Shown one piece after another: positions 6,325 through 59,107 of a DNA stretch of 64,000 nt. The notes under the pieces are model-generated. The model had not been told where the DNA came from and ran no database searches. It saw nothing but the letters and a program-made list of their open reading frames with translations. The DNA comes from a phage: the sequence record PZ738962.1; one strand, 5' to 3'. A program made the translations under genes and the position numbers. The first letter of the stretch is position 1; every line of letters starts with the position of its first letter.

Positions 6325-6334
6325 CATTTTTAAC

Positions 6335-6366
6335 AAGCCGATCCATGTGGTCGGCTTTATTTTTAT
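6335..6366 (+). terminator. intrinsic terminator after gene 35
   Basis: hairpin AAGCCGATCC-ATGT-GGTCGGCTT followed by TATTTTTAT. Confidence 0.6.
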
Positions 6367-6484
6367 ACAGTTGGTTAAATTGTAACCAAAACGAAGAAAG
6401 ATCTTTAGAATAATAAAAATTTGTTTCGGTTAAAAAGTAGTCAGTGCCTACGGCACGTCGCGAAGCGATATTTTGTTAACATTC

Positions 6485-6492
6485 TATAAATA
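6485..6492 (+). promoter_or_regulatory. T4-type late promoter TATAAATA upstream of gene 36
   Basis: exact TATAAATA 34 nt before the gene 36 ATG. Confidence 0.6.
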
Positions 6493-6525
6493 CTCGGAAC
6501 TATAACTAATTTTTGAGGTTACTTT

Positions 6526-8086: not shown

Positions 8087-11029
8087 ATGGCAGATTTAAG
8101 CAGAATCCAATTTAAACGCACTAGCACTAAAGGTCGTAAACCGGATGCTAGTACGATGAATCCGGGGGAATTGGCAATCAACCTTGCGGATCAATATCTT
8201 CTTACTAAAAATGATTCCGGTACTATTATCAATTTAAGTTGTCCTCCGGTTTATGACCGCGATGTTACAATGGCGGGTAAGGTTAAAGGTAATAATTATA
8301 TCTTAAGTAAAACCGCTAACTATCTGGAAGATCAGACAGCGAGAGATCTTAACTACTTTGGTGCTTTCCGTACCAATGGTCTTGATGGTCTTCTCGAACT
8401 CACGCTAAACGTTCCTCACTCTTCCGGTGTCCAACATGGTCGAGGATTTACTTTCCAGTATGGACATACTGGATCACGAGTAGAAACCTATGGCTATAAT
8501 AGAGAAGGTCAAAAAGCATTTAGCTATAAAATGTATCACGAAGGTGATAAACCAACTCCAGGAGAATTGAACGTCTATAGCAAACAAGAAGTTGACCGTA
8601 TGTTTGTTAAGAACGTTAAACTTGCTACATCTCCTAGTGATATCGTTGAAGGCTATTTTAAATTAGCAACTGCAATGATTCCACAAAACGGTCTTAGCGT
8701 ATTTTTCCGTATTCATGGTGGTAACGGATATAACGTTACTGCATACGATCAAGTTGATATTGTAGAAATTGTTATTCGCAGTGGAAATGGTCGCCCTAAA
8801 GGTGTTAACGTTATTGCATATCGCCGAAATACAAACAAATCATTTGATGTTTTGGCTGTTAATACTTCTGGTGATAACTATGATATCTATGTGAAATATC
8901 AGCGTTACACTGATAACGTTATTGTTGAATTTGGTAAAAGTGTTGGTGTTAATCTGGTAGTTCATGACGTTCCAGATTTTGTTGCTGAACGTCCTGCTGG
9001 TGATAATGTTATTGGCGGTCGTGCTGTAACTCTTTTCAACACCGAAAACAAACGAGGTGTGTTGAGTTTTGACGATAACACACAAAATAGTTATGATATT
9101 GTTCACTTGAGTAATGATAGGGGTACTGGACGAAAATATATTCGTAAATTCCGTAGCAACTATAATGAAATGATTTGGCATGAGACGGTTCAAGGTTCTA
9201 CTTATCGACTCGCCACGGGTAGTACAGATGCTCAGGAGATTCTAACCGTTGAATCTAGTAGCTCTATTTCTGGGACTCATAAAGGTAATATTCTTTCTGG
9301 TCGAATGATGTTGGGTGGCGGTAGTAATGTTATTACCTTGCGGCGTCCTGCTGGTCAATCCAACCATATTGCGTTTCAAGATAATCGTACTGGAGCTATT
9401 ACCCGTCAAGGGTGGATCGGTTATGGTAATGCTGATACTAACGTTTTTGAATGGTATAGTGATGTAGGTGGTAGTTCTATTCGTCACCACATCGACGGAC
9501 AGATCGAACTTGCAACCGGTAACACAAAACGCGTTTATACTAACGCTCAATTCATCTCAATGAATAGCGACGCCTACCGTATGATCTACGGTAATTATGG
9601 TGCATTCTGGCGTAATGATGGTGGTAAAGTTTATCTTCTTTCTACTGCCGAAAATGATACATTGGGCGGATGGAACGGCAACCGACCATTTATTTACGAT
9701 TTAACAACTGGTAAAGTTACTTTAGGTGGAGACGGTAACGAAGGCGCATTAGTTCTCGAAAGAGATAGCCGTGCGGCTAGATTTGCTGGCGACATTTACG
9801 TTGGCAAAGGGATGTTAACATTTGATGCCGGACGATTAAATTCTCGCGATTACTTCCGGTTTAACCATTGGGGCGATAGCAATAACGCGCGTGATAACAT
9901 TTTACAGCTTGACGATAGCATAGGTGCACACTTCACCACTGAACGTACTTTAGCAACTGGTGCAATTAAAACTAAATTCTTCGGTAATTTGGAATCTGCT
10001 GGTCAAATTAAATGGGGTAAAGGGACCGCCACATCTACGTTTACTCTACGTGTATGGGGTAGCGATAGCCGTAAACAAATATTTGAATGCGGCGATGAAA
10101 GCGGGTGGCATTGGTATACCCAACGCGCTGGCGGTCCAGATACTTCTGCAATTGAGTTTGCCATCAACGGTACTGTTCGGCCTCAAGCAATTCACACTGG
10201 CGGTAATATCACTATCAACGGTGCTGATATTGAGTTTCGTCGCACTGGCAATAAGCACATCTGGTTTAGAGATCCGAACGGTTTAGAATTGGGTCTGTTG
10301 TACTGCGATGATGCTGGTGTTATGCGTATGCGCGGTGAGAAACAAACCGAAGTCTGGAAATTCGGCGGTAAGATGATTCAACTTGAAACTGGTACTGTTT
10401 CCGGTGGAGGTAATGGCCTGATTCGTGGTTCTGTTGCTGGTGGTAGTTGGACTAGCTGGCGTGATCGTGCTTCCGGTTTACAGGTAGACTGTCAACAATC
10501 AACCGATTCCGCTCATAACGTATGGAAAGCAACCCATCAAGGTAAATATCATATAGCAGCAATGGGTGTACACGTTCCTAGCGGTACTATCGGAAATGCT
10601 ATGGTGCGTATGCACGTACACGATGCAACTTTTGACTGGGGTGCGAGCGGTGACTTCCAAGCAAGCCGTAATGGTAATTTTAACGATGTTTATATTCGTT
10701 CTGATGCTCGCCTTAAAATCAACAAGGAAGAGTATAAGGAGAATGCCACCGATAAAGTTAATCGCTTGACGGTATACACCTATGACAAGGTTAAATCTTT
10801 AACCGACCGTACTGTCATTGCTCATGAAGTTGGTATTATTGCTCAGGATCTTGAGAAAGAATTGCCGGAAGCAGTAACAACTTCTAAGGTCGGCGATCCT
10901 GATAAGCCAGAAGAGATCTTAACAATTTCTAACTCTGCTGTCAACGCTCTTTTAATTAAGGCGTTTCAGGAAATGAGCGAAGAATTGAAAGCCGTTAAAG
11001 CTGAACTAGCGGAACTTAAAAAGAATTAA
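8087..11029 (+). CDS. 37: long tail fibre distal subunit gp37 with C-terminal intramolecular chaperone domain
   Basis: 980 aa; N-terminus MADLSRIQFKR...GELAINL matches T4 gp37 pattern; C-terminus carries an SDARLK...GIIAQDL motif plus coiled coil. Confidence 0.85.
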   Translation: MADLSRIQFKRTSTKGRKPDASTMNPGELAINLADQYLLTKNDSGTIINLSCPPVYDRDVTMAGKVKGNNYILSKTANYLEDQTARDLNYFGAFRTNGLDGLLELTLNVPHSSGVQHGRGFTFQYGHTGSRVETYGYNREGQKAFSYKMYHEGDKPTPGELNVYSKQEVDRMFVKNVKLATSPSDIVEGYFKLATAMIPQNGLSVFFRIHGGNGYNVTAYDQVDIVEIVIRSGNGRPKGVNVIAYRRNTNKSFDVLAVNTSGDNYDIYVKYQRYTDNVIVEFGKSVGVNLVVHDVPDFVAERPAGDNVIGGRAVTLFNTENKRGVLSFDDNTQNSYDIVHLSNDRGTGRKYIRKFRSNYNEMIWHETVQGSTYRLATGSTDAQEILTVESSSSISGTHKGNILSGRMMLGGGSNVITLRRPAGQSNHIAFQDNRTGAITRQGWIGYGNADTNVFEWYSDVGGSSIRHHIDGQIELATGNTKRVYTNAQFISMNSDAYRMIYGNYGAFWRNDGGKVYLLSTAENDTLGGWNGNRPFIYDLTTGKVTLGGDGNEGALVLERDSRAARFAGDIYVGKGMLTFDAGRLNSRDYFRFNHWGDSNNARDNILQLDDSIGAHFTTERTLATGAIKTKFFGNLESAGQIKWGKGTATSTFTLRVWGSDSRKQIFECGDESGWHWYTQRAGGPDTSAIEFAINGTVRPQAIHTGGNITINGADIEFRRTGNKHIWFRDPNGLELGLLYCDDAGVMRMRGEKQTEVWKFGGKMIQLETGTVSGGGNGLIRGSVAGGSWTSWRDRASGLQVDCQQSTDSAHNVWKATHQGKYHIAAMGVHVPSGTIGNAMVRMHVHDATFDWGASGDFQASRNGNFNDVYIRSDARLKINKEEYKENATDKVNRLTVYTYDKVKSLTDRTVIAHEVGIIAQDLEKELPEAVTTSKVGDPDKPEEILTISNSAVNALLIKAFQEMSEELKAVKAELAELKKN
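10700..11026 (+). other. peptidase S74-like intramolecular chaperone (auto-cleaving) domain at gp37 C-terminus
   Basis: SDARLKINKEEY...VYTYDK...GIIAQDLEKELPEAV...coiled coil; matches the conserved SDxRxK / GxIAQ signature of endosialidase and T5 pb1 C-terminal chaperone domains. Confidence 0.65.
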
Positions 11030-11071
11030 GGAAAAATCCCAGGGAAGGGAAACTATTAAGGAGAAACGGCT

Positions 11072-11311
11072 ATGGTCTATAATATCGTCATTGGTGCTTT
11101 GTCTAGTTTCGGAATGAAACTATTATCAAAGTTAATTAGTGAAAAGATGCTCACTAAAATTTTCTTCTATTGCGCTCGTCGTCTTGCGGCCTATACCAAT
11201 ACGCCAATTGATGATCGTTTTGTGGAAGAACTTTATAAGGAGTTTAATAAAGATCAATCAGAAGATAGCAACGAGAAAGATAAACCTAGTGATAGTCAAG
11301 TACCTAAATAA
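11072..11311 (+). CDS. hypothetical small membrane protein (79 aa) between 37 and t
   Basis: ATG with AAGGAGAAACGGCT upstream; hydrophobic N-terminal helix then charged tail; overlapping alternative frame 11139..11327 judged less likely. Confidence 0.45.
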   Translation: MVYNIVIGALSSFGMKLLSKLISEKMLTKIFFYCARRLAAYTNTPIDDRFVEELYKEFNKDQSEDSNEKDKPSDSQVPK

Positions 11312-11344
11312 GAGTACACTGTCATAGTTATCTTAGGGCATTAT

Positions 11345-12001
11345 ATGCAAGTTTCTGAAAAAGAGAAAGACTTTGCTATCTCAAATGTCCTGCGCGCTAT
11401 TTTCACAACTAAAAGCACGGAGTTGCTCGTACTTCGTGTTTTTGCTGCCGTCGTGTTGTCCATATTAGCATTTGTCGTTTATAGTAAAAACGAGTTATTT
11501 GCGCTTTATAAAGAGACTCGTTATGAGACTTATGCTCACGTTCTCCAGGTAGAGAAAGACCGCAATTTTGATAATGCAGCACAGGAGCAGTTACAGATAG
11601 TTCATGTGTCGGCTGATGCCGATTTTTCTGCTGTTTTTAGCTTTCGTCCGAAAAACCTAAACTATTTTGTTGATTTGGTGGCATATGAAGGAAAGCTACC
11701 GCATACGATCGATGAAAAGAATTTAGGCGGGTTCCCTATCAATAAAACGAGTGAAGAATATCGTAGGCATCTTTTAGGTAAATCATATTTTACCGATAAA
11801 GATTTCCAGTATATTCCATCGAGGGAGAAAAAATTAGAGAATATCGATATAGGGTTTATGTATTCTTGTCCTATATTCAATCTCGATAATGTCTATTCTG
11901 GTAGTATCGCCATTGCATGGAAGAATAAACCGGATATTGACATTGAGAATTTGGATACTCTTTGCAATCAATCTGCCAGAATCCTCGGAAGGATTAGATA
12001 A
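11345..12001 (+). CDS. t: holin (lysis inhibition-sensitive T holin)
   Basis: 218 aa; strong similarity to T4 T as recalled (LEQLQIVHVSADADFSAVFSFRPKNLNYFVDLVAYEGKLP, FMYSCPIFNLDNVYSG, ARILGR). Confidence 0.9.
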   Translation: MQVSEKEKDFAISNVLRAIFTTKSTELLVLRVFAAVVLSILAFVVYSKNELFALYKETRYETYAHVLQVEKDRNFDNAAQEQLQIVHVSADADFSAVFSFRPKNLNYFVDLVAYEGKLPHTIDEKNLGGFPINKTSEEYRRHLLGKSYFTDKDFQYIPSREKKLENIDIGFMYSCPIFNLDNVYSGSIAIAWKNKPDIDIENLDTLCNQSARILGRIR

Positions 12002-12006
12002 CTTAA

Positions 12007-12040
12007 AGGGGAAGCCTTTCGGCCTCCCCTTCTTTTTTAT
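12007..12040. terminator. terminator hairpin at the convergence point of plus-strand late module and minus-strand early genes
   Basis: AGGGGAAGCC-TTTC-GGCCTCCCCT followed by TCTTTTTTA on plus strand; minus-strand gene 12037..12285 ends adjacent. Confidence 0.55.
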
Positions 12041-12285
12041 TGGCGCATAGAAGCCCCTGAATCACATTTTGACGCTGTATGATGAAAACAGGTAGCGTAC
12101 CAGTCATCGGCTTGTTTGTCTTCGTCAGAAAACGCGTAATTTCGTTGTATGCCGTTTTCTACTTTGACCAGCGCAATAGCTGTTTCTGGAAGATCAATCA
12201 ATCGGACAAAATCGCCATCTTCCCATTCTACACGAGCAATATCATAACCCATCTCAAAGTATACAATCGCTTGTTCTAATTTCAT
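12037..12285 (-). CDS. hypothetical small protein, possible DUF2829 (Tad2-like) fold
   Basis: 82 aa; pattern M-x-L-E-Q-A-I...G-x-x-I-A-R-x-x-W...DDW resembles DUF2829 N- and C-terminal motifs from memory; start overlaps upstream stop (ATGA). Confidence 0.5.
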   Translation of the reverse strand: MKLEQAIVYFEMGYDIARVEWEDGDFVRLIDLPETAIALVKVENGIQRNYAFSDEDKQADDWYATCFHHTASKCDSGASMRQ

Positions 12286-12593
12286 TCTGGAAACTTCCCG
12301 TAAATGTTCTCTGCCAACATACGCGCATCGCTAATGATATCTTTCATGCTATGACCGTAGTGTTCAGCCATTGAGTTGACACAATCAACAAAGAAATTAT
12401 AACGGCGACGGTTTAAGATTTCTTCTCTGCTATAGTTTTCATATTTGACGGTCGAGTGTGCTTTCTCGATTGCCTTGATTGCTATATTGACTTCATTGAT
12501 AATGGTTTTAGCATTGTATGCGCCACGACGGATCAGGATATTTGTCAATTCTCTTGCAATATCTTGCAATTCTTCATATTCATGTTCAAACAT
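12282..12593 (-). CDS. hypothetical protein (103 aa from ATG; track ORF extends to a TTG at 12614)
   Basis: ATG at 12593 preceded by GAGGT; coupled to downstream gene. Confidence 0.5.
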   Translation of the reverse strand: MFEHEYEELQDIARELTNILIRRGAYNAKTIINEVNIAIKAIEKAHSTVKYENYSREEILNRRRYNFFVDCVNSMAEHYGHSMKDIISDARMLAENIYGKFPE

Positions 12594-12617
12594 AATCAAC
12601 CTCGCAAAATACAATCC

Positions 12618-12950
12618 TTACAGATGAAAACCTGTTACGATCACCGCATCGATCTTACCGCTAGGAATAAACGGTTCGCCCTCTTTTATTTCAACTTTGA
12701 ATTGATGCCATTTCGCTAATACTTCTTCCGGTACACCCAGCGATTCGGCGTCTGCTTTAGTTTCATCCATAATCCAACTAGGCTGCATGAGAGCATAGTT
12801 TACATAGTCCATTTCTGGGGTCATGTCATCAATGTTAATATATTTGCAGTTGACGCGTTTCAGAATTTCAAATTCTTTATTGTCAACCTGTACCATGTAT
12901 AATTCAGTAGTTTCTGGAATCAGTTCCCACACAATCAGTACATTTTTCAT
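12618..12950 (-). CDS. hypothetical protein (110 aa)
   Basis: ATG with GTGAGGTG upstream; no family recognised. Confidence 0.55.
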   Translation of the reverse strand: MKNVLIVWELIPETTELYMVQVDNKEFEILKRVNCKYINIDDMTPEMDYVNYALMQPSWIMDETKADAESLGVPEEVLAKWHQFKVEIKEGEPFIPSGKIDAVIVTGFHL

Positions 12951-12958
12951 AGTTCACC

Positions 12959-13327
12959 TCACTTAACAAAGATTTTCTTTAATGCTTTCAGGATCGTTGC
13001 TTCCGGCGCTTCTTCCGGTGGAGGAAGCAATTCTACCACTTCCTCTTCCAACTCGATATAGTCTACCAGATATTCTACATAGAATGCAAGTGCTTCCATG
13101 AAATTAGATGCTACATCCGATTCACCACAAGCGCCTACATGCATTGTATAAACATCACTGCGATCAAGTTTGTGGATGCTTCCCAGATAGTTTCGGTTAT
13201 ACCAGACTTCCCACACTTTCAGCTTTCCGGTTTTGGTTGCTGTTTTATAATCGGTTTCGTAATGATGCAATTGACGTTGCAAATCATTGATAATAACACA
13301 TTTTTCGTAATTGTTTTGAATTTCCAT
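12959..13327 (-). CDS. hypothetical protein (122 aa)
   Basis: ATG with TGAGGATTACATC upstream; acidic C-terminus. Confidence 0.55.
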   Translation of the reverse strand: MEIQNNYEKCVIINDLQRQLHHYETDYKTATKTGKLKVWEVWYNRNYLGSIHKLDRSDVYTMHVGACGESDVASNFMEALAFYVEYLVDYIELEEEVVELLPPPEEAPEATILKALKKIFVK

Positions 13328-13337
13328 GATGTAATCC

Positions 13338-13529
13338 TCACTTATCGTTAAGAAGTTCTAAAACTTTCTGTCGTACTTTGTCAATATTAGTTGATTCAAA
13401 AACTGTACGGTATCCCCAGCTTTGACCGTATGATCGCGAGCAATCCCCATATCCCCATTGTTCAACCTGATAGTATTCAAGGAATGGGTGCTGCCGAACT
13501 ATGATACCATCGCGATTAAAAATTACCAT
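13338..13529 (-). CDS. hypothetical small protein (63 aa from ATG)
   Basis: ATG at 13529 preceded by GTGAGGATTAATATT; track start at 13544 is GTG. Confidence 0.45.
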   Translation of the reverse strand: MVIFNRDGIIVRQHPFLEYYQVEQWGYGDCSRSYGQSWGYRTVFESTNIDKVRQKVLELLNDK

Positions 13530-13553
13530 AATATTAATCCTCACGTCAACAAC

Positions 13554-13841
13554 TTATTTTCGGTTGTGGTCACGATATGTTTTAAAATATCCCTCGTACC
13601 ACGGTAAAATATCTGGATTTTTACCACTATACAGACCTTTAACCATCATGTCAATAAGGCCATCTGGTGTTTGATAGTTTCCAGCTTTTATAAGCTCTCT
13701 GATTAAAATCTCTCTGTATATGTCTTTCGGATCTTCGTAATCAACTTGTATTGTGGTTGTTGTCTCGCTTAATTTGGTTTCTGGAGTATCTTGCATCGCC
13801 TTCCACCAATCTTTTGTAATCTTCATGTTATTGAATTGCAT
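13554..13841 (-). CDS. hypothetical protein (95 aa)
   Basis: ATG with AAGAGGTTAAATT upstream. Confidence 0.5.
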   Translation of the reverse strand: MQFNNMKITKDWWKAMQDTPETKLSETTTTIQVDYEDPKDIYREILIRELIKAGNYQTPDGLIDMMVKGLYSGKNPDILPWYEGYFKTYRDHNRK

Positions 13842-13852
13842 AATTTAACCTC

Positions 13853-14611
13853 TTACTTGCAAACGTATTGATCTACATCAATTGCTCCACCGAATGTAGG
13901 ATGACGTTTTTCAAATCGAATAGTTCCGTCGTTTGGTTCGAAAACGGAGTATTCATATAGATCTTTCTTGCCAACATTCTTATAAAACCCGCCTTTAGTC
14001 ATAACGGTTTCTTGTACGTTTGCTTTGTGTACGTTGTATTCATCAATGTATACAAAATCAACCATCTTCCCATTTTTAATGGTTACTTTAAGATCCCCTG
14101 GCTGGTTTCCATATTTTGCATACAGTGGAGCCTCTTTAATTTTTGTGGAAATTCCATCTTTCATACTCCACTCATAACGAACGGTGCATTGATAGGTCAA
14201 AGTTTCGACCTTCGGTTCTTCTACCACTTTTGCCTCCTGTTTCGGTTGTTCTTCTTCAACCTTCGCAGAAGTCTCTGAATCGCTTTCTGACGCGGTTTCT
14301 TCTTTAGGTAATACATTCATCAAGTTTTGGATTTGAGCGTTATATACAGCCTCCAGTGGCTGAATCTGCCCGATATTGATCATTGTATCACGAACAGTTT
14401 TATTCCAGTTTCGTTGCTCTTGTTTCAGAGACGGATCAATCTTAACAGCCTTAACATATACTTCATGAAGTTTAGAGTCCAGTGCGGAGATAGACTCATT
14501 AGCACAAATAAACTTCTCTGATTTGGTAGTAGCTTTAGCGCAATCAAAGGACGCAGCGTTAGCACCGAAAGCAGTAGCAGAAAGAACGATAGCAGCGATA
14601 ATGTTTTTCAT
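13853..14611 (-). CDS. secreted protein with N-terminal DUF1311 (LprI-like) domain
   Basis: 252 aa; signal peptide MKNIIAAIVLSATAFGANA; FDCAKATTKSEKFICANESISALDSKLHEVY...QRNW matches DUF1311 Cys pattern; acidic linker; C-terminal domain with two Cys. Confidence 0.6.
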   Translation of the reverse strand: MKNIIAAIVLSATAFGANAASFDCAKATTKSEKFICANESISALDSKLHEVYVKAVKIDPSLKQEQRNWNKTVRDTMINIGQIQPLEAVYNAQIQNLMNVLPKEETASESDSETSAKVEEEQPKQEAKVVEEPKVETLTYQCTVRYEWSMKDGISTKIKEAPLYAKYGNQPGDLKVTIKNGKMVDFVYIDEYNVHKANVQETVMTKGGFYKNVGKKDLYEYSVFEPNDGTIRFEKRHPTFGGAIDVDQYVCK

Positions 14612-14645
14612 AATATATTCCTCAGTGTTTTGTCTTGATGGGAGT

Positions 14646-14674
14646 ATGTTACTACTCCCTTAATCCGGTGTCAA
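14646..14674 (-). promoter_or_regulatory. PeSL-type early promoter (TTGACA-N17-TAACAT) with GGGAGTA/TACTCCC stem-loop
   Basis: minus-strand TTGACA, 17-bp spacer, -10-like hexamer; inverted repeat spans spacer and -10; drives 13853..14611. Confidence 0.55.
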
Positions 14675-14685
14675 CTACTTTTAAA

Positions 14686-14985
14686 TTATTTTCGCCATTC
14701 ACCGGAAACAATAAAGTTTGTAAAGTGATCGTGGTCCATGATAACGTCATTAAGTACCATATGTGGATACACTTTAGTGATAATTTTACTAAGTACCATA
14801 TGCGGATATGCTTTAGTGTAATCACGTTTACGATCAGTCATCCAGTCAACGAAAGTTGGTGCAAAGTACGGTACACCGTCAGACGATGCCATATTAAACC
14901 CTTTATCAACCATAAATGCAGCCGCCCTAAGATTTTTAATTGAAGTAGTGCGACTAATTTCAAAAACTTTATCGGTAAAATTCAT
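14686..14985 (-). CDS. hypothetical protein (99 aa from ATG) containing an internal 39-bp tandem repeat
   Basis: ATG at 14985; contains KAYPHMVLS...KVYPHMVLN repeat encoded by imperfect direct repeat 14751..14822. Confidence 0.45.
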   Translation of the reverse strand: MNFTDKVFEISRTTSIKNLRAAAFMVDKGFNMASSDGVPYFAPTFVDWMTDRKRDYTKAYPHMVLSKIITKVYPHMVLNDVIMDHDHFTNFIVSGEWRK

Positions 14986-14986
14986 T

Positions 14987-15196
14987 TTAAGCCCCCGCTC
15001 GTGCATTAATACGCATTTTCTGTATAGCCATGATCTGGTTTACTGCTTCTTCTTTACGTTCTTGCGTGATAATGTGACCAGATTCCGCAAACTCTCCAGC
15101 AACTTCTTCTACGATCTCGCGAACTTGAGAACGTCCAAAGATGCGGTTTCCTTCGTAGCTCATAAACTCTGTTACTACTTGCTCGATAGATTTCAT
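14987..15196 (-). CDS. hypothetical small protein (69 aa)
   Basis: ATG preceded by GGAGAATCAC leader of a PeSL cassette. Confidence 0.55.
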   Translation of the reverse strand: MKSIEQVVTEFMSYEGNRIFGRSQVREIVEEVAGEFAESGHIITQERKEEAVNQIMAIQKMRINARAGA

Positions 15197-15225
15197 GTGA
15201 TTCTCCTTTCGTTTGGTATGGGAGT

Positions 15226-15254
15226 ATGTTACTACTCCCTTATCTTTACGTCAA
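15226..15254 (-). promoter_or_regulatory. PeSL-type early promoter (TTGACG-N17-TAACAT) with GGGAGTA/TACTCCC stem-loop
   Basis: same architecture and near-identical sequence as copy at 14646; drives 14987..15196. Confidence 0.55.
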
Positions 15255-15261
15255 CTAGTTT

Positions 15262-15504
15262 TTAGAAATTTTTCGCTTCTTCTTCGGTCATCATCACCGC
15301 GCATTCGTGCATAACTTTGAAAACCGGGTCAATCATATCGAATGCTTCGCTGGACAGTTTACGAGAAGCGATTTTGATTGCTTCAACGTCTTCTACTACA
15401 GGAACAAAAACAGTTTTCAGTTCGTCGAGCACGGCAGCTTCTTTTTCATTCAGGAAGATCCCAGCGTCGTACAGTGCAACTTCGATAACATTAACTTTAA
15501 CCAT
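15262..15504 (-). CDS. hypothetical small acidic protein (80 aa from ATG)
   Basis: ATG at 15504 preceded by GGAGGAAATAAAA; longer track ORF would run through the promoter. Confidence 0.5.
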   Translation of the reverse strand: MVKVNVIEVALYDAGIFLNEKEAAVLDELKTVFVPVVEDVEAIKIASRKLSSEAFDMIDPVFKVMHECAVMMTEEEAKNF

Positions 15505-15538
15505 TTTTATTTCCTCCAGTTCGTTTCGGTATGGGAGT

Positions 15539-15567
15539 ATAATACTACCGATGACCTTTGGCGTCAA
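15539..15567 (-). promoter_or_regulatory. PeSL-type early promoter (TTGACG-N17-TATTAT), degenerate stem-loop
   Basis: TTGACG, 17-bp spacer, TATTAT; conserved leader ACTCCCATACC...GGAGG; drives 15262..15504. Confidence 0.5.
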
Positions 15568-15769
15568 CTGCTTTTTTATTATTTTCGTGAAAATTTTTCG
15601 TCGCCTCATGTGCTTTTCGCTGGGCTTCTTGTTGTGCTTGCTGGCGTGCTGCCTCTTGTGAAGCCATAACGGAAGCATTTGCAGCAGTTACAGCCGCTAC
15701 CATCGCTGCGGTATTAGCATTTACAGTACATGCACTAGCCAGCAAAGCAATTGCAATCATTTTCTTCAT
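15545..15769 (-). CDS. small secreted or lipoprotein-like protein (74 aa)
   Basis: N-terminal signal-like MKKMIAIALLASACT then Ala/Gln-rich low-complexity region; ATG with AAGGGGAAAC upstream. Confidence 0.45.
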   Translation of the reverse strand: MKKMIAIALLASACTVNANTAAMVAAVTAANASVMASQEAARQQAQQEAQRKAHEATKNFHENNKKAVDAKGHR

Positions 15770-15936
15770 AGTTTCCCCTTTAGGTTATCTTCGACCTTCA
15801 CCCATTCCGCGTATTCTTGCGCGGCTACTTTCGGATTTAGTCCGTCTTCGTACATTGCTTCAAGTAATTCTTCGTCGGTGGGCTTATACCCTAGATAAGC
15901 CTTCACCTGATTTTTCCAAATTTTATACCAGTTCAT
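15766..15936 (-). CDS. hypothetical small protein (56 aa from ATG)
   Basis: ATG at 15936 immediately after upstream stop (TGATAATATG). Confidence 0.4.
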   Translation of the reverse strand: MNWYKIWKNQVKAYLGYKPTDEELLEAMYEDGLNPKVAAQEYAEWVKVEDNLKGKL

Positions 15937-15940
15937 ATTA

Positions 15941-16213
15941 TCACCAGTCAAGAGCGCGTGTCTCTGCGTCTTCCCATGCTTGATCCATAACAGCCTTGAA
16001 AACATATTCTAAAGTATCATCTTTAGAGAATCCGAAGACCTTAGACGGAATATCTTCAATTGCTACTCCCGCGACTTCTGCATTACGCGCTTGGCAATAA
16101 TGCAACTCTAAGTTATCGAGATAGCGACCGCCTAATTTCTCCATATCATCCCAGCATTTCCAGTAACCTACTTTATTTGCAATCGCTAACACCTTGCTGT
16201 TTTCGTTGTTCAT
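15941..16213 (-). CDS. hypothetical protein (90 aa from ATG)
   Basis: ATG at 16213 preceded by GGAGAATCAAAG leader. Confidence 0.5.
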   Translation of the reverse strand: MNNENSKVLAIANKVGYWKCWDDMEKLGGRYLDNLELHYCQARNAEVAGVAIEDIPSKVFGFSKDDTLEYVFKAVMDQAWEDAETRALDW

Positions 16214-16244
16214 CTTTGATTCTCCTTTTGTTTGGTATGTGTGT

Positions 16245-16273
16245 ATTATGCAATGATGGATTTGTGAAGTCAA
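16245..16273 (-). promoter_or_regulatory. PeSL-type early promoter (TTGACT-N17-CATAAT)
   Basis: TTGACT, 17-bp spacer, CATAAT, conserved ACACACATACCAAAC...GGAGAATCA leader; drives 15941..16213. Confidence 0.55.
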
Positions 16274-16280
16274 CAACTTT

Positions 16281-16314
16281 TTAAAATAAAAAAGCCGACC
16301 ACACGGATCGGCTT
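16281..16314 (-). terminator. intrinsic terminator (minus strand) after gene 16324..16719
   Basis: hairpin AAGCCGATCC-GTGT-GGTCGGCTT followed by U-run on minus strand; near-identical to the plus-strand terminator at 6335. Confidence 0.6.
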
Positions 16315-16323
16315 AATAATCAG

Positions 16324-16719
16324 TTACTTACTAAATTTCTTTTTGGCTTCGTCTACCGCATGAGATGCCAGTACCGCAGCCGCATGTGCACTTTTATCTG
16401 TGTTGCAGAGAACGCCCAGATAAACATCACGCCAAAGTTTAATCATCTCGTAGATCATATCAATATCATTTTCTTGTTTGTTGGCGATGCTATTCGTCGT
16501 TATCTGGTAAGGTAACGGCTTGATCTGTACTGGTTCCGCCATCGGGCTAATCGGTTTCGGATCAGTCATAATAGGTGCTGTTGTGGGTGGTGTTTTCCAT
16601 ACGTCATTATTCCACGGTTTAATCGTTGTATCGTAAAGTTTATAAGGATTTTTGTCTGGATTAACCATCCAGGCATGATGAGTACCCAAACCATTTGAAG
16701 TGATGCGTCGTTCAGTCAT
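16324..16719 (-). CDS. hypothetical protein (131 aa)
   Basis: ATG with GGAGGGAAAGT upstream; Pro/Thr-rich middle region. Confidence 0.55.
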   Translation of the reverse strand: MTERRITSNGLGTHHAWMVNPDKNPYKLYDTTIKPWNNDVWKTPPTTAPIMTDPKPISPMAEPVQIKPLPYQITTNSIANKQENDIDMIYEMIKLWRDVYLGVLCNTDKSAHAAAVLASHAVDEAKKKFSK

Positions 16720-16915
16720 ACTTTCCCTCCAAAAATTCTTTCATCAAATAGTCTATCGTTGCTCTGTGTTCTGGTGTGTTTGTTATCTCTGCTAACTTAT
16801 TCAGAGATTCAATAGTGATCCGGTTGGCTTCTTCCATAGTCTCAACGACCATTGGCACAATCTTTTTATTGTTGTACACAAATGCAATATAACCGCCTTC
16901 TGGATATTCTTTCAT
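16712..16915 (-). CDS. hypothetical small protein (67 aa from ATG)
   Basis: ATG at 16915 preceded by AAGAAGGG; directly upstream of gene 52 stop. Confidence 0.45.
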   Translation of the reverse strand: MKEYPEGGYIAFVYNNKKIVPMVVETMEEANRITIESLNKLAEITNTPEHRATIDYLMKEFLEGKYD

Positions 16916-16917
16916 AA

Positions 16918-18264
16918 TCAACCCTTCTTAAGTTCTTTAAGATCTTTCTTATATTCCTTCATTGCGGTCGTCTTTGTCCAATACTCATATTCACTATGAT
17001 GTTTATCGGAATCTTTGACCAGTCGATCATACTCTTCTTGAGTAACGCTATACAATGGCATAGAAACTAGCTTATCGGCGTATGGACGCAGTTTTTCATG
17101 TCCATTGATGGATTGCATTACCTCGGCCTTTTTCTTGCCCTGTAGCTCGATTTCGCCCTTAATTACGCGGTCGATAAATTCAGCTTTAGCCATTGCATAA
17201 TTGTATGCTTCCAGTGTTTCCGCTTGCATCAATTCAATGCGTTTATCGACATACCCTAATCGGATTTCGACGAATCGACGGATCAGATCGCTCGCTTTCT
17301 CGAATACTTCAACTAAACCACGTTCATTAACCACTACGATATTCTGGGCTACTAACTGCGTTAGTTTAAAATCCTTCATGATTTGCTCATGTCGAGCGGA
17401 TTCATCTTCGCTTTTGAAATAATCGCGTTTCAGTGTTACTTCAAATCTGAATCCGTCCTTAGAGCAACGGTCATTATACGATACAATCAGATCTTTTTCT
17501 TCCAGTGCATCAAGTACCGCTACATATTCTTCACGGTCGAACTTATAAGGAACTTCTGATATTGTCAGCTTAGTCTTGCCGTTTAGTTCATATGTACCCT
17601 CAAGAATCACACCATCGCGATCATCTCGCGGGATAACTTTACCCGTGAATTTCGGGAATTGAACACTAGGTTCTTTATCCAGTTTTCCGGCAAGTGCTAG
17701 CTCTGTGCATTCAATGAGGCTTTCCAGTGAATGCGGTAAAATGTCAGTTTTATACCCTGTAGCAATACCACTAATACCATTAGCCAATACCATTGGCACA
17801 ACTGGCAAGTAGAACGCTGGCGGGATGTGTTCCAGATCTTCGTGCTTGGGTGCGCAATTCATATCTTTATAGATTTTAAAGAAGTTTTCATGCACGCGAG
17901 CAAAGATATAACGTGCCGCACCTGCTTTCTGGACTAAACGCGATCCGAAGTTACCTTGACCGTCAAGCAGTGGAGTATTATTGCTCCATGTATTCGCCAT
18001 AAGTGATCCGGCTTCTACGGCATTAGTTTCCCCGTGGTGATAACCCAACTCGGCAACACCAGATCCAATATCTGCCATCTTACGGAATTTCTTACGGTCG
18101 CCTTTACTCTTTTGCAAAGCACATTCCATAACAAAGCGTTGCACTGGTTTAAGCCCATCTACTAATTGAGGAATCCCGCGTTCCTCGGCAGAATAGATCG
18201 CATATTCCTTAGCTTCATTATGTACAATGCTTTCAAGGCTGCGGTAAGTAACTGATTTATTCAT
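16918..18264 (-). CDS. 52: DNA topoisomerase II medium subunit gp52 (GyrA-like)
   Basis: GyrA signature DGLKPVQRF and long similarity to T4 gp52 as recalled; start set to ATG at 18264 (GAGGTG upstream) to match T4 N-terminus. Confidence 0.9.
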   Translation of the reverse strand: MNKSVTYRSLESIVHNEAKEYAIYSAEERGIPQLVDGLKPVQRFVMECALQKSKGDRKKFRKMADIGSGVAELGYHHGETNAVEAGSLMANTWSNNTPLLDGQGNFGSRLVQKAGAARYIFARVHENFFKIYKDMNCAPKHEDLEHIPPAFYLPVVPMVLANGISGIATGYKTDILPHSLESLIECTELALAGKLDKEPSVQFPKFTGKVIPRDDRDGVILEGTYELNGKTKLTISEVPYKFDREEYVAVLDALEEKDLIVSYNDRCSKDGFRFEVTLKRDYFKSEDESARHEQIMKDFKLTQLVAQNIVVVNERGLVEVFEKASDLIRRFVEIRLGYVDKRIELMQAETLEAYNYAMAKAEFIDRVIKGEIELQGKKKAEVMQSINGHEKLRPYADKLVSMPLYSVTQEEYDRLVKDSDKHHSEYEYWTKTTAMKEYKKDLKELKKG

Positions 18265-18271
18265 CTTCACC

Positions 18272-18634
18272 TCATACACGCTTACAAATCACATTCTTTA
18301 CTTTATCAGATTTATCAGCCCAATCCAATAGCCATTTTAACGGAAGGATTGACACAATAAACGGGGCAGCAATCAAAGCAAACATGATACACCTGATAAT
18401 CAGGAAAACGCAAGTGACAAAACTAGCGATAGTGATCCCGACAAAACAAAATACCATAGAAAACAGAGTAATGATATAGAAAGGCCAGAATACCCACTCC
18501 CGCATCTTAACGCCTTTGTATTCTCTGAATTGCTTAAAATCTACAAACAACTCTCGGATAGACGCGTACAGGACAGAAAAATCATCTTTCATTGCTCTGA
18601 ATGAGCAATCTTCTATTTTAGAATGACCTAGCAT
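18272..18634 (-). CDS. hypothetical membrane protein (120 aa)
   Basis: two long hydrophobic segments (WVFWPFYIITLFSMVFCFVGITIASFVTCVFLII, FALIAAPFIVSILPL). Confidence 0.5.
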   Translation of the reverse strand: MLGHSKIEDCSFRAMKDDFSVLYASIRELFVDFKQFREYKGVKMREWVFWPFYIITLFSMVFCFVGITIASFVTCVFLIIRCIMFALIAAPFIVSILPLKWLLDWADKSDKVKNVICKRV

Positions 18635-18636
18635 TA

Positions 18637-18930
18637 TTAACCGCCTTTAACCATTGATACAGGAATTGTTTTCTGATTTGTGTATAAGTGGCCTACTTCA
18701 ATTTTTTCTTGAATCACCACGACGTTACAATATCCACTGTCTTTAAGTTTTCTGATAATGACTCGCTTTTGTTCGTCGGTGATAGGATTGACTGTTCTCA
18801 CCAATTCACCGCAAATAATAGCACCATCTTTACAATTACCAGTAACTTTCATGCTACGACCGTGAACAACAACCACGTCACCGTAAATCACATTTTCGTC
18901 GTCATATTTGGTAATAACCGTGACCGTCAT
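18637..18930 (-). CDS. hypothetical protein (97 aa)
   Basis: ATG with AGAGGGAATACATT upstream. Confidence 0.5.
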   Translation of the reverse strand: MTVTVITKYDDENVIYGDVVVVHGRSMKVTGNCKDGAIICGELVRTVNPITDEQKRVIIRKLKDSGYCNVVVIQEKIEVGHLYTNQKTIPVSMVKGG

Positions 18931-18949
18931 AATGTATTCCCTCTAAGAA

Positions 18950-18968
18950 AGGCCGCGCAAAGCGGCCT
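18950..18968 (-). terminator. stem-loop / terminator (minus strand) between 18976..19302 and 18637..18930
   Basis: AGGCCGC-GCAAA-GCGGCCT followed by UUUCUUA on minus strand. Confidence 0.5.
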
Positions 18969-18975
18969 ATGTTGA

Positions 18976-19302
18976 TTATTGTTCTACAGTATAACCGTTG
19001 TTTTCAAGCCATGCAATAACAATCTTCTCACCAATTTCATCGAGCATTTCATCAGATCCATATTCTTTGATGAAAATCGATGGATCGTTATTGCTTACTA
19101 CGTGCTGAATCACAACATGTTCAGGAATTGCGTCTAGTAGTTCGCTATGATCATACTCATTAACGATATCTTCAACACTAACATTATTAACCAAATCAAC
19201 ATCATCCATAGTCACAGTAACGCGACCGGACGGACGCAATGAATATTGGCTACTTTCAACTTCAACATGTGCACTTTCGCAAGTAACTTTCATATCAACC
19301 AT
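18976..19302 (-). CDS. hypothetical highly acidic protein (108 aa from ATG)
   Basis: ATG at 19302 preceded by CAGAGGAATTGATT; strongly Asp/Glu-rich. Confidence 0.5.
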   Translation of the reverse strand: MVDMKVTCESAHVEVESSQYSLRPSGRVTVTMDDVDLVNNVSVEDIVNEYDHSELLDAIPEHVVIQHVVSNNDPSIFIKEYGSDEMLDEIGEKIVIAWLENNGYTVEQ

Positions 19303-36043: not shown

Positions 36044-36054
36044 TATTAATACCT

Positions 36055-36243
36055 CTATTCAGTTAATCCGTAATACTTTAATTGCTTCATTGTTATTCGA
36101 TCTTTGTATTGCTCTTGAATTAACCGTTTCATCGCATCAACATCGATCGTCACAAATACTTCGTTGCTGTGATTTCCGTGAACTTTCTTGAAATGCTCTA
36201 TGCCTTCCTCTCGTTCACGTTTAATCTTTTCAATGTCTCTCAT
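36055..36243 (-). CDS. hypothetical small protein (62 aa from ATG)
   Basis: ATG at 36243; track start at 36282 is GTG inside a hairpin. Confidence 0.4.
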   Translation of the reverse strand: MRDIEKIKREREEGIEHFKKVHGNHSNEVFVTIDVDAMKRLIQEQYKDRITMKQLKYYGLTE

Positions 36244-36304
36244 AGTATATTTCTCACATTGGCGGGTATCGTCACCCAACACCCGCCATTATACACACTT
36301 TATC

Positions 36305-38983: not shown

Positions 38984-39015
38984 AATATAAACTCCTTCAC
39001 TTACGAAAGACACTC

Positions 39016-39044
39016 ATTATAGGGGAATCGACTTAGTTTGTCAA
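39016..39044 (-). promoter_or_regulatory. consensus sigma70-type promoter for gene 43 (TTGACA-N17-TATAAT)
   Basis: perfect -35 and -10 hexamers with 17-bp spacer, about 30 nt upstream of the gene 43 ATG. Confidence 0.65.
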
Positions 39045-39065
39045 TACCCCTATCCCATCAGTATC

Positions 39066-39428: not shown

Positions 39429-39429
39429 T

Positions 39430-58134: not shown

Positions 58135-58165
58135 AATATAATCCTCTCGTTGTTTAGATGGGAGT

Positions 58166-58194
58166 ATCTTACTACTCCCGTTTCATCATGTCAA
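58166..58194 (-). promoter_or_regulatory. PeSL-type early promoter (TTGACA-N17-TAAGAT) with GGGAGTA/TACTCCC stem-loop
   Basis: near-identical to copies at 14646 and 15226. Confidence 0.5.
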
Positions 58195-59044: not shown

Positions 59045-59075
59045 TGTTGATTCTCCTTCTTGATTAGATGGGAGT

Positions 59076-59104
59076 ATTTTACTACTCCCATTTCTTATTG
59101 TCAA
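59076..59104 (-). promoter_or_regulatory. PeSL-type early promoter (TTGACA-N17-TAAAAT) with GGGAGTA/TACTCCC stem-loop
   Basis: same cassette as 58166; directly after gene 49 stop. Confidence 0.5.
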
Positions 59105-59107
59105 CTA

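Follow-up and report, generated by a model that had tools for sequence, protein, structure and literature searches.

The interval between holin t and gene 52 of an RB49-like coliphage: a probable Krischvirus version of a T4-type hyperplastic region

Introduction

In T4, ZZ1, Roth19, phi25-307, and UPEC01, the gene order is t-asiA-(variable ORFs)-motA-52; asiA lies beside t and motA beside 52 in T4, Mosigvirus, Klebsiella, Acinetobacter, and other T4-type phages. A first-pass annotation of a 64,000-nucleotide stretch of phage DNA (PZ738962.1, hereafter the window) recognized neither gene in this interval and described instead a hypervariable accessory island of about 17 cassette-flanked small ORFs. 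What, then, does this locus contain, and are AsiA and MotA really missing? With a probability of about 0.9, the interval is the form taken in Krischvirus (the RB49 group) by the T4-type hyperplastic region (HPR) between holin t and gene 52.

Overall organization of the interval

The source phage is a Krischvirus, i.e., an RB49-like T4-type coliphage. It shares 95–99% nucleotide identity with 56 phage records, among them RB49, Phi1, JSE, and GEC-3S, and the relatives retrieved are classed as Krischvirus. The interval is bordered by t and gene 52 (Table 1), and the T4 proteins t and gp52 match those of a close relative with phmmer E values of 3e-67 and 4e-146, respectively. On the minus strand, the hairpin next to t folds with -23.2 kcal/mol (z -5.4), and on the plus strand with -16.8 kcal/mol (z -3.6); the terminator annotation of its counterpart in GEC-3S covers both strands. 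Between these borders, the recount gave 15 small ORFs, all of them on the minus strand. Two listed ORFs had been over-extended at the N-terminus; their true starts are 15504 (ORF10) and 16213 (ORF13). ORF1 to ORF6 are tightly packed with no intergenic promoters, and ORF14 and ORF15 directly follow gene 52. The PHROGs matches of the island ORFs belong exclusively to families of unknown function.

Table 1. Features of the t-to-52 interval and its borders (positions in the window)
Feature	Coordinates	Strand	Evidence
Holin t, left border	11345..12001	+	PF11031 Phage_holin_T, E 4.9e-61
Bidirectional hairpin terminator, between t and ORF1	12005..12032	.	fold energy
ORF1, 82 aa, Tad2-family (DUF2829)	12037..12285	-	PF11195 'Tad2-like', 27.9 bits, cut-off 25
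ORF2, 103 aa, helical ORFan	12282..12593	-	phrog_9457
ORF3, 110 aa, conserved ORFan	12618..12950	-	phrog_4658
ORF4, 122 aa, T4 arn.4 orthologue	12959..13327	-	phmmer E 4.5e-6 to T4 arn.4 reading frame
ORF5, 63 aa	13338..13529	-	phrog_6957
ORF6, 95 aa, two allelic forms	13554..13841	-	phrog_15915
ORF7, 252 aa, predicted secreted two-domain protein	13853..14611	-	DUF1311/LprI match
PeSL upstream of ORF7	14612..14690	-	fold -16.3 kcal/mol, z -3.2
ORF8, probable true start 14985	14686..15006	-	phrog_19692, aligned from residue 8
ORF9, 69 aa, conserved ORFan	14987..15196	-	phrog_14966
PeSL upstream of ORF9	15197..15261	-	TTGACG-17-TAACAT; fold z -2.2
ORF10, 80 aa, start MVKV with GGAGG Shine-Dalgarno	15262..15504	-	sequence
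PeSL-like promoter upstream of ORF10, overlapping the ORF11 3' end	15505..15575	-	TTGACG-17-TATTAT
ORF11, 74 aa, signal-like N-terminus, then A/Q-rich tail	15545..15769	-	sequence
ORF12, 56 aa	15766..15936	-	phrog_8655, aligned from residue 21 of longer ORF
ORF13, 90 aa	15941..16213	-	phrog_7287, aligned from residue 26 of longer ORF
PeSL upstream of ORF13	16214..16323	-	sequence, alignment, folding
ORF14, 131 aa, conserved ORFan	16324..16719	-	phrog_15644, E 4e-92
ORF15, 67 aa, starting directly past the gene 52 stop codon	16712..16915	-	phrog_15105
gp52, topoisomerase II medium subunit, right border	16918..18279	-	PF00521, E 7.5e-69

Search for AsiA and MotA

No recognizable asiA or motA is present between t and 52, as the first-pass annotation had proposed. 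None of the 15 ORFs matched the Pfam AsiA or MotA families at E ≤ 1, although PF09010, PF09114, and PF09158 do detect T4 and divergent orthologues. Custom HMMs gave best E values of 0.39 (AsiA) and 0.71 (MotA) over 3587 six-frame segments of the window and the 164,032-bp Delraymugoa genome, against 6e-20 to 9e-82 in leave-one-out controls, and they recovered the orthologues of Pseudomonas, Aeromonas, and Acinetobacter phages at E < 1e-19. In hhalign comparisons, no ORF exceeded a probability of 4% with AsiA or MotA, whereas controls reached 99%. The MotA-box pattern occurred once (1.6 expected), off the transcribed strand, compared with 12 occurrences against 1.7 expected in the syntenic region (1–50 kb) of T4.

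These results bear on the idea that the 15 ORFans conceal a strongly diverged form of AsiA or MotA, or else a sigma70-remodelling analogue homologous to neither, and that a middle mode of transcription has been kept. ORF2, ORF9, ORF10, and ORF15 are small and predicted or likely to be helical like AsiA, and ORF2 lies near t, close to the position of asiA in T4. Moreover, AsiA of KVP40 is functional with only 27% identity to that of T4, and reviewers have proposed unrecognized MotA analogues for motA-less phages (PMC2988021). Yet the ORF2 and AsiA profiles aligned with a probability of just 2%, the sensitive HMM searches were empty, and the lack of MotA-box enrichment argues against a retained middle mode. 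Two published searches of RB49 were likewise negative: neither a motA orthologue nor a middle-promoter consensus was found (Nolan 2006, PMC1524935), and the same absence had been reported in 2002 (Desplats 2002, as cited there). A hidden regulator is very improbable, although sequence comparison speaks to homologues more than to a non-homologous analogue.

Relocation of asiA and motA beyond the window deserves hardly any credence. Only 64 kb of the ~164-kb genome is visible, and in Aeromonas phages the two genes do not adjoin each other. However, whole-genome absence could be judged on Delraymugoa, which is complete, colinear, and 98.6% identical over the tested region, and the profile searches of every ORF together with the genome-wide search for both genes found no homologue in the interval, the window, or this genome. 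With T4 AsiA and MotA as phmmer queries, this relative's complete genome gave nothing at E ≤ 1e-3, and among 60 sampled tblastn rows for each protein no accession matched the window. RB49 itself was reported negative, as noted above, and AsiA is listed for other phages only (PMC2988021). On this sequence evidence, the apparent absence of AsiA and MotA from the lineage is supported.

Promoters and PeSL cassettes

The reading of the early promoters as sigma70-type rather than MotA-box type was borne out. The pattern TTGACN-N16-18-TANNNT was found 52 times against 9.6 expected, an approximately five-fold excess, and 48 of the 52 sites are on the minus strand. One promoter-like site lies within ORF6 (13626-13654, TTGACA-17-TATAGT, 11 of 12 matches). 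The island genes would be read by the host sigma70 RNA polymerase from such consensus-type early promoters.

The cassettes are PeSL elements (promoter-early stem-loops), but there are only four, at 4 of the 14 gene junctions (upstream of ORF7, ORF9, ORF10, and ORF13); thus, "cassette-flanked" holds only from ORF7 to ORF13. Their architecture comprises an AT-rich tract, -35 and -10 elements, a hairpin over the -10 element or upstream of the promoter, a common 5'UTR, and a Shine-Dalgarno sequence. In the ORF7 element, the AT-rich tract is accompanied by TTGACA (14669-14674), a 17-nt spacer, TAACAT (14646-14651), a GGGAGTA/TACTCCC hairpin (14640-14659), and a Shine-Dalgarno sequence. The ORF9 element carries the same hairpin over its -10 element, as shown by a 25-nt exact repeat. 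That of ORF13 consists of a terminator hairpin (16292-16314) with a T-run, TTGACT-17-CATAAT (16245-16273), the common 5'UTR, and a Shine-Dalgarno sequence. The hairpin upstream of ORF10 is weak and folds no better than shuffled sequence (z -0.9). Additional copies were aligned at 58120-58210 and 59030-59120 of the window. The structure of PeSLs, their measured promoter and terminator activity, and their role in indels were described by Arbiol 2010 (PMC2839356); by analogy with that work on RB49 and phi1, the island copies are probably active in both respects and early in timing.

Variability among relatives

At least 80% of the interval was covered in 29 of 59 Krischvirus relatives, in comparison to 59 of 59 for an equal-length polymerase control. 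Variability is indeed far above the control, but the island is a mosaic: 7 of the 15 ORFs hardly vary across the 11 relatives compared, so that "hypervariable" fits sub-regions only.

Several variants terminate in PeSL sequence. In ECD7, the deletion of 15228-16216 is a crossover between two PeSLs within their common 5'UTR; an additional ORF with a duplicated PeSL is present in Makalu and SSG23, and both this insertion and the ECD7 deletion terminate in the ORF13 PeSL. The alleles of the ORF8 slot, which has three allelic states, and a 503-bp indel comprising ORF10 and ORF11 also have their endpoints within PeSLs, and the sites concerned are the common 5'UTR or the AT-rich tract beside the -35 element. 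Repetition of the ~70–100-bp cassettes would allow homologous recombination to delete, insert, or swap the genes that they flank, and this exchange would lead to differing gene sets among sister phages.

A possible, though rather doubtful, alternative is that the variability is mainly of non-PeSL origin, arising by illegitimate or short-homology recombination in genes and by allelic replacement from co-infecting phages or prophages, the cassettes being ordinary early promoters nearby. Three variable spots do break inside coding sequence, namely the ORF2 5' half (12408-12614), the ORF6 alleles (13568-13624), and the ORF7 C-terminal domain (13855/13872-14203/14209). Over its 5' 408 nt, but not in its 3' part, ORF7 matches an E. 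coli chromosomal gene with 95–96% identity; in the single genome inspected, this gene has phage-like neighbors, which encode a Rha-family regulator and hypothetical proteins. Furthermore, ORF5 is also found in unrelated ~136-kb coliphages (~85% nucleotide identity). Against this alternative stand the PeSL endpoints listed above and the PeSL mini-circles demonstrated experimentally in RB49 and phi1 (PMC2839356). Given the intragenic breakpoints and the presence of PeSLs at 4 of 14 junctions, PeSL recombination accounts for only part of the variation; it is compatible with the other mechanisms, not exclusive of them.

Gene content of the island

ORF1 had been described as a DUF2829-like secreted protein; the family assignment stands, but a signal peptide is absent. 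Present in 11 of 11 relatives, it exceeds the PF11195 gathering score and resembles Tad2 (Thoeris anti-defence 2) of Bacillus phage SPO1 and relatives in size (82 versus 89 aa). Its AF2 model (pLDDT 74) is nearest to the solved Tad2 structures 8SMF, 8WJE, and 8V3E, and the top 10 Foldseek hits in the PDB are all Tad2 (probability 1.00, TM 0.54–0.61). However, ORF1 is only 15–18% identical to the solved Tad2 proteins, a sequence-level search of the PDB gave no match, and, unlike SPO1 Tad2, it comes from a T4-type coliphage. ORF1 is a Tad2-family protein and a putative anti-Thoeris sponge.

The DUF1311 protein proposed earlier was recovered as ORF7, predicted from its N-terminal signal-like sequence to be secreted. 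The signal sequence is followed by a DUF1311/LprI helical domain, an acidic linker, and a variable beta-barrel. A small C-terminal beta-barrel likewise occurs in Mycobacterium tuberculosis LprI (DUF1311 + MliC), and ORF7 shares the helical domain with its conserved cysteines, and predicted secretion, with both LprI and the periplasmic DUF1311 protein ScwA of Salmonella. The cargo of the island appears to be accessory host-interaction genes, including ORF1 and ORF7. The second signal-peptide protein also held up as ORF11, whose N-terminus (MKKMIAIALLASACTVNA) is signal-like as judged by eye; PHROG and Pfam searches with it were empty. ORF10, carried by 6 of 11 relatives, had no PHROG match.

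ORF4 matches arn.4 reciprocally and also matches the motA-adjacent gene in UPEC01, phi25-307, and Roth19. In T4-type phages, arn.4 is immediately downstream of motA, and the annotation note on RB49ORF257c also bears on this assignment. Of the genes in the asiA-motA interval of T4, arn.4 is thus the one kept here.

Conservation of the remaining ORFs is uneven. ORF3 is 97–100% identical at the amino acid level across all 11 relatives. The ORF2 5' half is allelic, with 49–54% amino acid identity in RB49, Phi1, JSE, GEC-3S, Delraymugoa, and AV108, and its variable segment is unmatched in six relatives; the second ORF6 allele (46–49% amino acid identity) is found in 6 of 11. ORF8, carried by 3 of 11, contains a 39-nt tandem duplication (14739-14816) and is 81% identical in amino acids to the sequence that phi1 has at the site of ORFan 263.1; this ORFan is located inside the t-52 interval and was named a unique HPR ORFan (Arbiol 2010, PMC2839356).

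Comparison with known regions

The island and the T4 t-asiA-arn-motA-52 region have the same flanks, orientation, and small-early-gene cluster, with arn.4 in common. Unlike T4, the island is without asiA, motA, asiA.1, arn, arn.1-3, motA.1, and MotA-box promoters. The closest known counterparts are in the same genus, i.e., the HPRs with PeSLs of RB49, phi1, and JSE (Arbiol et al. 2010, PMC2839356; Comeau et al. 2014, PMC4122927), where the identical locus spans RB49 ORF253c-266c and phi1 ORF255-268. These regions exhibit the same cassette architecture, sigma70 -35/-10 elements, and indel association. Yet the isolate has its own allele set: RB49 ORF255c/256.1 is absent, and ORF8 and ORF10 with ORF11 are present. 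Its content differs from that of RB49, phi1, and JSE, but its kind does not. The absence of asiA and motA and the presence of PeSL-separated small genes agree with Nolan 2006 (citing Desplats 2002) and Arbiol 2010; the observation is therefore correct, yet already described for the RB49 group, and our conclusion repeats the published accounts of RB49, phi1, and JSE.

Genomic Setting and Layout of the t-to-52 Interval

In a megablast search, the region 11000–18300 matched 64 phage records, 56 of them at 95–99% identity, including RB49, Phi1, JSE, GEC-3S, and many recent Escherichia coli and Shigella isolates. The relatives that were fetched are classified as Krischvirus, and these close matches place the window, as judged by sequence, in an RB49-like "pseudo-T-even" coliphage. 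Its colinear counterpart in phage Delraymugoa (OR896825) is ~59.3–123.3 kb.

The borders of the interval, holin gene t and gene 52, were confirmed by matches to PF11031 and PF00521, respectively. Between them lie 15 minus-strand genes (ORF1–ORF15), rather than the ~17 ORFs proposed in the first-pass annotation. Two ORFs of the mechanical list, ORF10 and ORF13, had been called too long at the N-terminus; judging from PHROG alignments together with Shine-Dalgarno sequences, their true starts are 15504 and 16213, and that of ORF8 is probably 14985. ORF1–ORF6 overlap or are tightly packed, with no promoter in their intergenic spaces, and ORF14–ORF15 directly follow gene 52. PHROGs assigned 13 of the 15 ORFs to families of unknown function and ORF10 and ORF11 to no family. 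Ten ORFs had no match in NCBIfam, and an Rfam search of 11000–19000 found no RNA family.

Table. Positions of genes, hairpins, and cassettes in the window.
Feature	Position	Strand	Remarks
Holin gene t	11345–12001	+	PF11031, E 5e-61
Strong bidirectional hairpin	12005–12032	both	between t and ORF1
ORF1	12037–12285	-	82 aa, Tad2-like
ORF4	12959–13327	-	arn.4-like
ORF5	13338–13529	-	
ORF7	13853–14611	-	252 aa, DUF1311/LprI
Hairpin GGGAGTA-N6-TACTCCC over the -10	14640–14659	-	z -3.2
Tandem duplication in ORF8	14739–14816		39 nt, copies 82% identical
Hairpin GGGAGTA-N6-TACTCCC over the -10	15220–15239	-	z -2.2
ORF10 cassette	15505–15575	-	weak hairpin, z -0.9
ORF13 cassette, terminator-like hairpin and T-run upstream of the promoter	16292–16314	-	z -2.3
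Gene 52, topoisomerase subunit	16918–18279	-	PF00521, E 7.5e-69
Further cassette copy	58120–58210	-	alignment A1
Further cassette copy	59030–59120	-	alignment A1

Absence of AsiA and MotA

None of the 15 ORFs matched AsiA (PF09010), MotA_activ (PF09114), or MotCF (PF09158) in a Pfam scan at E ≤ 1. The same library detected T4 AsiA and T4 MotA, with query sequences identical to PDB 1JR5 and 6K4Y. The AsiA controls were matched at 1e-42 and 9e-15, the latter being AsiA of Pseudomonas phage PspYZU05, and MotA of Acinetobacter phage ZZ1 was detected with an E value of 9e-7. Our own HMMs were built from nine AsiA and seven MotA orthologues of Escherichia, Shigella, Klebsiella, Providencia, Acinetobacter, Aeromonas, and Pseudomonas phages. 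They were run against all six-frame, stop-to-stop segments of at least 30 aa (n = 3587) from the whole window and the complete 164,032-bp Delraymugoa genome. The best E values over these segments were 0.39 for AsiA and 0.71 for MotA, at the level of noise; the matched segments belong to a baseplate gene and to a large ORF close to nrdD. In leave-one-out controls against the same database, held-out orthologues were recovered at 6e-20 to 9e-82 (AsiA at 6e-20 or better, MotA at 3e-28 or better). Alignment of each ORF to the AsiA and MotA alignments with hhalign gave probabilities of at most 4% and 2%, respectively, as opposed to 99% for held-out controls.

Two ORFs were considered as candidates. 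ORF2, which is helical and lies near t, might have been a hidden AsiA; its hhalign probability of 4% was the highest of all ORFs, the profile of its homologues scored 2% against the AsiA profile, and this reading was rejected. ORF11 gave a blastp match to the linker of T4 MotA (E 8.7e-5) in a database of 11 sequences only. The matched segment is A/Q/K/E-rich low-complexity sequence, hhalign gave 0.3%, and ORF11 is not among the best matches of the MotA HMM over the 3587 segments; the similarity was dismissed. The proposal that the interval holds no recognisable asiA or motA thus stands by Pfam, PHROGs, our own HMMs, and hhalign, all negative with positive controls, and the search for motA was equally negative over the window and the Delraymugoa genome.

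Promoter Types

The MotA-box promoter consensus, (a/t)(a/t)(a/t)TGCTTtA followed after 11–13 nt by TAnnnT, was searched as TGCTTYA-N11-13-TANNNT. The 64-kb window contains one match versus 1.6 expected; it lies inside ORF8 on the non-transcribed strand, and the transcribed strand has none. The syntenic 1–50 kb of T4, used as a control, contains 12 matches versus 1.7 expected (maximum of 6 in 100 shuffles), including sites upstream of genes 45 and 46. The sigma70-type pattern TTGACN-N16-18-TANNNT occurs 52 times in the window versus 9.6 expected, a count that none of 100 shuffles exceeded, and 48 of the 52 sites are on the minus strand. Since MotA boxes are not enriched and sigma70-type promoters are, the first-pass annotation was right in describing the promoters as sigma70-consensus rather than MotA-box types.

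Two copies of the late-promoter motif TATAAATA are present in the 64 kb (4.7 expected), at 1373–1380 and 6485–6492 on the plus strand. Both are in the tail-fibre gene region, upstream of tail-fibre genes, and the interval and the early-gene block have none.

Comparison with the T4 Locus

The corresponding locus was compared in T4, Mosigvirus phi25-307, Klebsiella phage Roth19, Gaprivervirus UPEC01, and Acinetobacter phage ZZ1. In all of these phages, the order is t, asiA, variable small ORFs, motA, and 52; thus, the Krischvirus interval is the same slot minus the two regulators. ORF4 matched the T4 arn.4 reading frame in phmmer (E 4.5e-6; reciprocal match 6.5e-6) as well as genes of UPEC01 (6.4e-5), phi25-307 (1.5e-4), and Roth19 (8e-3), each match being the motA-adjacent gene. 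ORF4 is the orthologue of T4 arn.4, whose place in T4-type phages is immediately downstream of motA. A note on arn.4 is already present in the RB49 record. As a synteny marker, ORF4 is the sole gene kept from the T4 asiA–motA interval.

At E ≤ 1e-3, no homologue was found in the window and OR896825 of T4 asiA.1, arn, arn.1–3, or motA.1, of motB, srh, mrh, modA, sp (spackle), or imm, or of the hydroxymethylase gene 42, a-gt, or b-gt. The same sequences do contain homologues of srd, modB, rpbA, gene 55, regA, and dmd.

PeSL Cassettes at Four Gene Junctions

The minus-strand sequences upstream of ORF7, ORF9, ORF10, and ORF13 are mutually alignable (alignment A1). Each cassette contains an A/T-rich tract, whose start coincides with or precedes the stop codon of the gene before it, and a GTTGAC -35 element separated by 17 nt from a -10 hexamer. 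The motif CATACCAAAC is also part of the cassette, as are a GGAG Shine-Dalgarno sequence and an ATG. Among the four copies, the -35 element is TTGACA, TTGACG, or TTGACT and the -10 element TAACAT, TATTAT, or CATAAT, always 17 nt apart and preceded by an A/T-rich run. These elements are intergenic, lie just upstream of an ORFan with a Shine-Dalgarno sequence, and are repeated elsewhere (alignment A1; repeats D1 and D8 of the window). They combine sigma70-like -35 and -10 elements, ~17 nt apart and behind an AT-rich tract, with a stem-loop in or next to the promoter, weak in the ORF10 copy. The published subclasses of promoter-early stem-loop (PeSL) elements include those with a "stem-loop overlapping the -10" and a "stem-loop upstream of the -35" (PMC2839356). 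On these features, the island cassettes are PeSL elements as described for RB49 and phi1, and their promoter and terminator functions are predicted; both activities, and the formation of mini-circles, have been demonstrated experimentally for other RB49 and phi1 copies (PMC2839356).

Cassettes are present at four gene junctions only. The earlier description of the ORFs as cassette-flanked therefore holds at those four junctions and fails at the others. In the two further copies in alignment A1, the -10 is covered by the same hairpin as in two of the island copies. Other TTGAC-N17-TAnnnT sites with G/C-rich spacer palindromes are numerous in the window, e.g., at 45834, 53282, and 62977.

Variability among Krischvirus Genomes

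The 4879-bp interval is covered to at least 80% in 29 of 59 Krischvirus records, the coverage ranging from 53 to 100% in 2–6 aligned pieces, as compared with full coverage in 59/59 records for an equal-length control (uvsX, gene 43, regA, 62). Breakpoints were mapped and gene presence was scored at the locus of 11 relatives. ORF1, 3, 4, 5, 9, 14, and 15 are present in all 11, with 83–100% amino acid identity. ORF2, ORF6, and the C-terminal half of ORF7 exist in at least two allelic forms (46–67% identity). ORF12–13 were found in 10 relatives, ORF10 and ORF11 as a 503-bp unit in six, and ORF8 in three. The island is hypervariable, as had been proposed, in sub-regions but not as a whole, seven of its 15 ORFs being present in every relative.

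Several of the differences have their ends in cassettes. ECD7 lacks 15228–16216 through a crossover within the 30-nt 5'UTR common to the ORF9 and ORF13 cassettes (repeat D1), so that ORF9 is joined to the ORF13 promoter. Makalu_001 and SSG23 have an additional ORF of ~207 nt with the cassette duplicated on both sides. Between ORF9 and the ORF7 cassette, three arrangements occur: MIZ4 has an empty slot; the window and Delraymugoa have ORF8, with counterparts of 81–82% amino acid identity in Skers and Phi1; and RB49, JSE, ECD7, SSG23, and Makalu have a different cassette and a 156-nt ORF. Both ends of the ORF10/11 unit fall in the AT-rich stretch CGAAAATAAT...GTTGAC within the cassettes. All four of these events, in ECD7, in Makalu/SSG23, in the ORF8 slot, and at ORF10/11, fit the published PeSL-mediated modular shuffling. 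The other three variable spots, ORF2, ORF6, and ORF7, have intragenic end-points, and these replacements call for another mechanism.

The phi1 ORFan 263.1 has been listed among the unique ORFans of hyperplastic regions (PMC2839356). It lies within the interval at the position matching ORF8, with 81% amino acid identity. The ORFs annotated at this position in Phi1 and Skers are 261 nt long. In ORF8 itself, a tandem duplication gives rise to a repeated KxYPHMVL peptide.

Elsewhere in the window, over the region 35000–39878, the match is split by a ~1.1-kb insertion in kvi, ECD7, Cognac, MIZ4, JK32, and others, and by a shorter insertion in JSE; no insertion of this kind is present in the window. 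In some records, the annotation there comprises two DNA polymerase CDSs with an HNH or NUMOD3 endonuclease gene.

Cargo Genes

The DUF2829-like and DUF1311 proteins noticed earlier were both recovered above the Pfam gathering scores. ORF1 matched PF11195, formerly DUF2829 and now named "Tad2-like", with 27.9 bits versus a cut-off of 25, over profile positions 1–71 of 73. An exhaustive HMMER search with ORF1 gave only eight matches, three of which are long proteins aligned in 6–8 stretches each, and the alignment used for its AlphaFold model was therefore shallow (four sequences; pLDDT 74, i.e., moderate quality). In a Foldseek comparison of this model with the PDB, each of the ten best matches is a Tad2 structure, either of phage SPO1 or of a Myroides phage (probability 1.00, TM 0.54–0.61, E 5e-3 to 6e-2), and the lower matches, the next of which has a probability of 0.54, are noise. 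PDB sequence searches with ORF1, its profile, and ORF7 gave nothing useful. Tad2 proteins sequester the Thoeris signal gcADPR, and we infer that ORF1 may do the same. ORF1 adjoins the holin gene and is kept in 11/11 Krischvirus relatives.

ORF7 consists of four parts: a signal-like N-terminus (MKNIIAAIVLSATAFGANA, judged by eye), from which it is putatively secreted; a DUF1311/LprI helical domain (residues 24–76; PF07007, 26 bits versus a cut-off of 22); a disordered acidic linker; and a confidently modelled eight-stranded β-barrel with two conserved cysteines. The E. coli homologues are named 'lysozyme inhibitor LprI family protein' in RefSeq. A 'TKG' tripeptide in the barrel was weighed as a candidate MliC motif; the Tyr that precedes TKG in that motif is absent, the tripeptide is not conserved in homologues, and its reading as this motif was rejected. 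Across 17 homologues, the N-terminal ~130 residues are nearly invariant, and the barrel occurs in several very divergent sequence types. The barrel swap also separates Krischvirus genomes from each other. In its first 408 nt, ORF7 is 95–96% identical to a gene carried on the chromosome in 26 of 5426 complete E. coli genomes. In strain H2, the one genome examined, this gene (6001–6771 of locus L026) lies between a Rha-family regulator gene with hypothetical genes and, on the opposite flank, hicAB with core genes; this arrangement suggests a prophage edge.

In unrelated ~136-kb E. coli myophages (ECP26, B9-1, NHEP1, Pr121LW), a hypothetical gene shares ~85% nucleotide identity with ORF5 (region 13332–13540), which suggests horizontal transfer between phage families. 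Collectively, the cargo similarities point to gene traffic among virulent phages, other phages, and E. coli chromosomes.

A bolder reading, which we consider rather unlikely, is that the island is partly a counter-defence or exclusion locus traded among unrelated phages. ORF1 would then be a working Thoeris (gcADPR) sponge of a T4-type coliphage. ORF7, made up of a constant DUF1311 module and a polymorphic β-barrel, would act in the periplasm on incoming phages or cell-wall enzymes, e.g., as a Spackle or Imm analogue, T4 proteins that are both absent from this lineage. Its constant half would move between virulent Krischvirus and E. coli chromosomes, the one copy examined lying in phage-like sequence.

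Relation to Published Work and Significance

Nolan et al. (2006; PMC1524935) report, from Desplats et al. (2002) and from their own search, that RB49 has no motA orthologue or middle-promoter consensus, and give AsiA orthologues only for RB69, 44RR, Aeh1, and KVP40. Hinton's 2010 review (PMC2988021) has the same distribution. Cassettes and hyperplastic regions were described by Arbiol et al. in 2010 (PMC2839356) and Comeau et al. in 2014 (PMC4122927). Lack of AsiA and MotA, together with an exchange-site island, is already known for RB49, phi1, and JSE and is ordinary for the genus; therefore, the first-pass finding is a correct rediscovery. Its observation is largely right, except in the number of ORFs and in how widely they are flanked by cassettes, and its interpretation is supported.

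The Tad2-family gene beside the holin (counter-defence) and the polymorphic, putatively secreted DUF1311/β-barrel gene (superinfection exclusion) are modest leads. ORF1 and ORF7 are the only parts that may merit follow-up, and the cargo observations leave the verdict unchanged. Since both main points were already published, the chief value of the analysis is the correct annotation of this isolate. It confirms that the programme of a T4-type coliphage lineage proceeds with no AsiA/MotA sigma-appropriation step, and that small accessory genes are exchanged at the slot that AsiA and MotA frame in T4.
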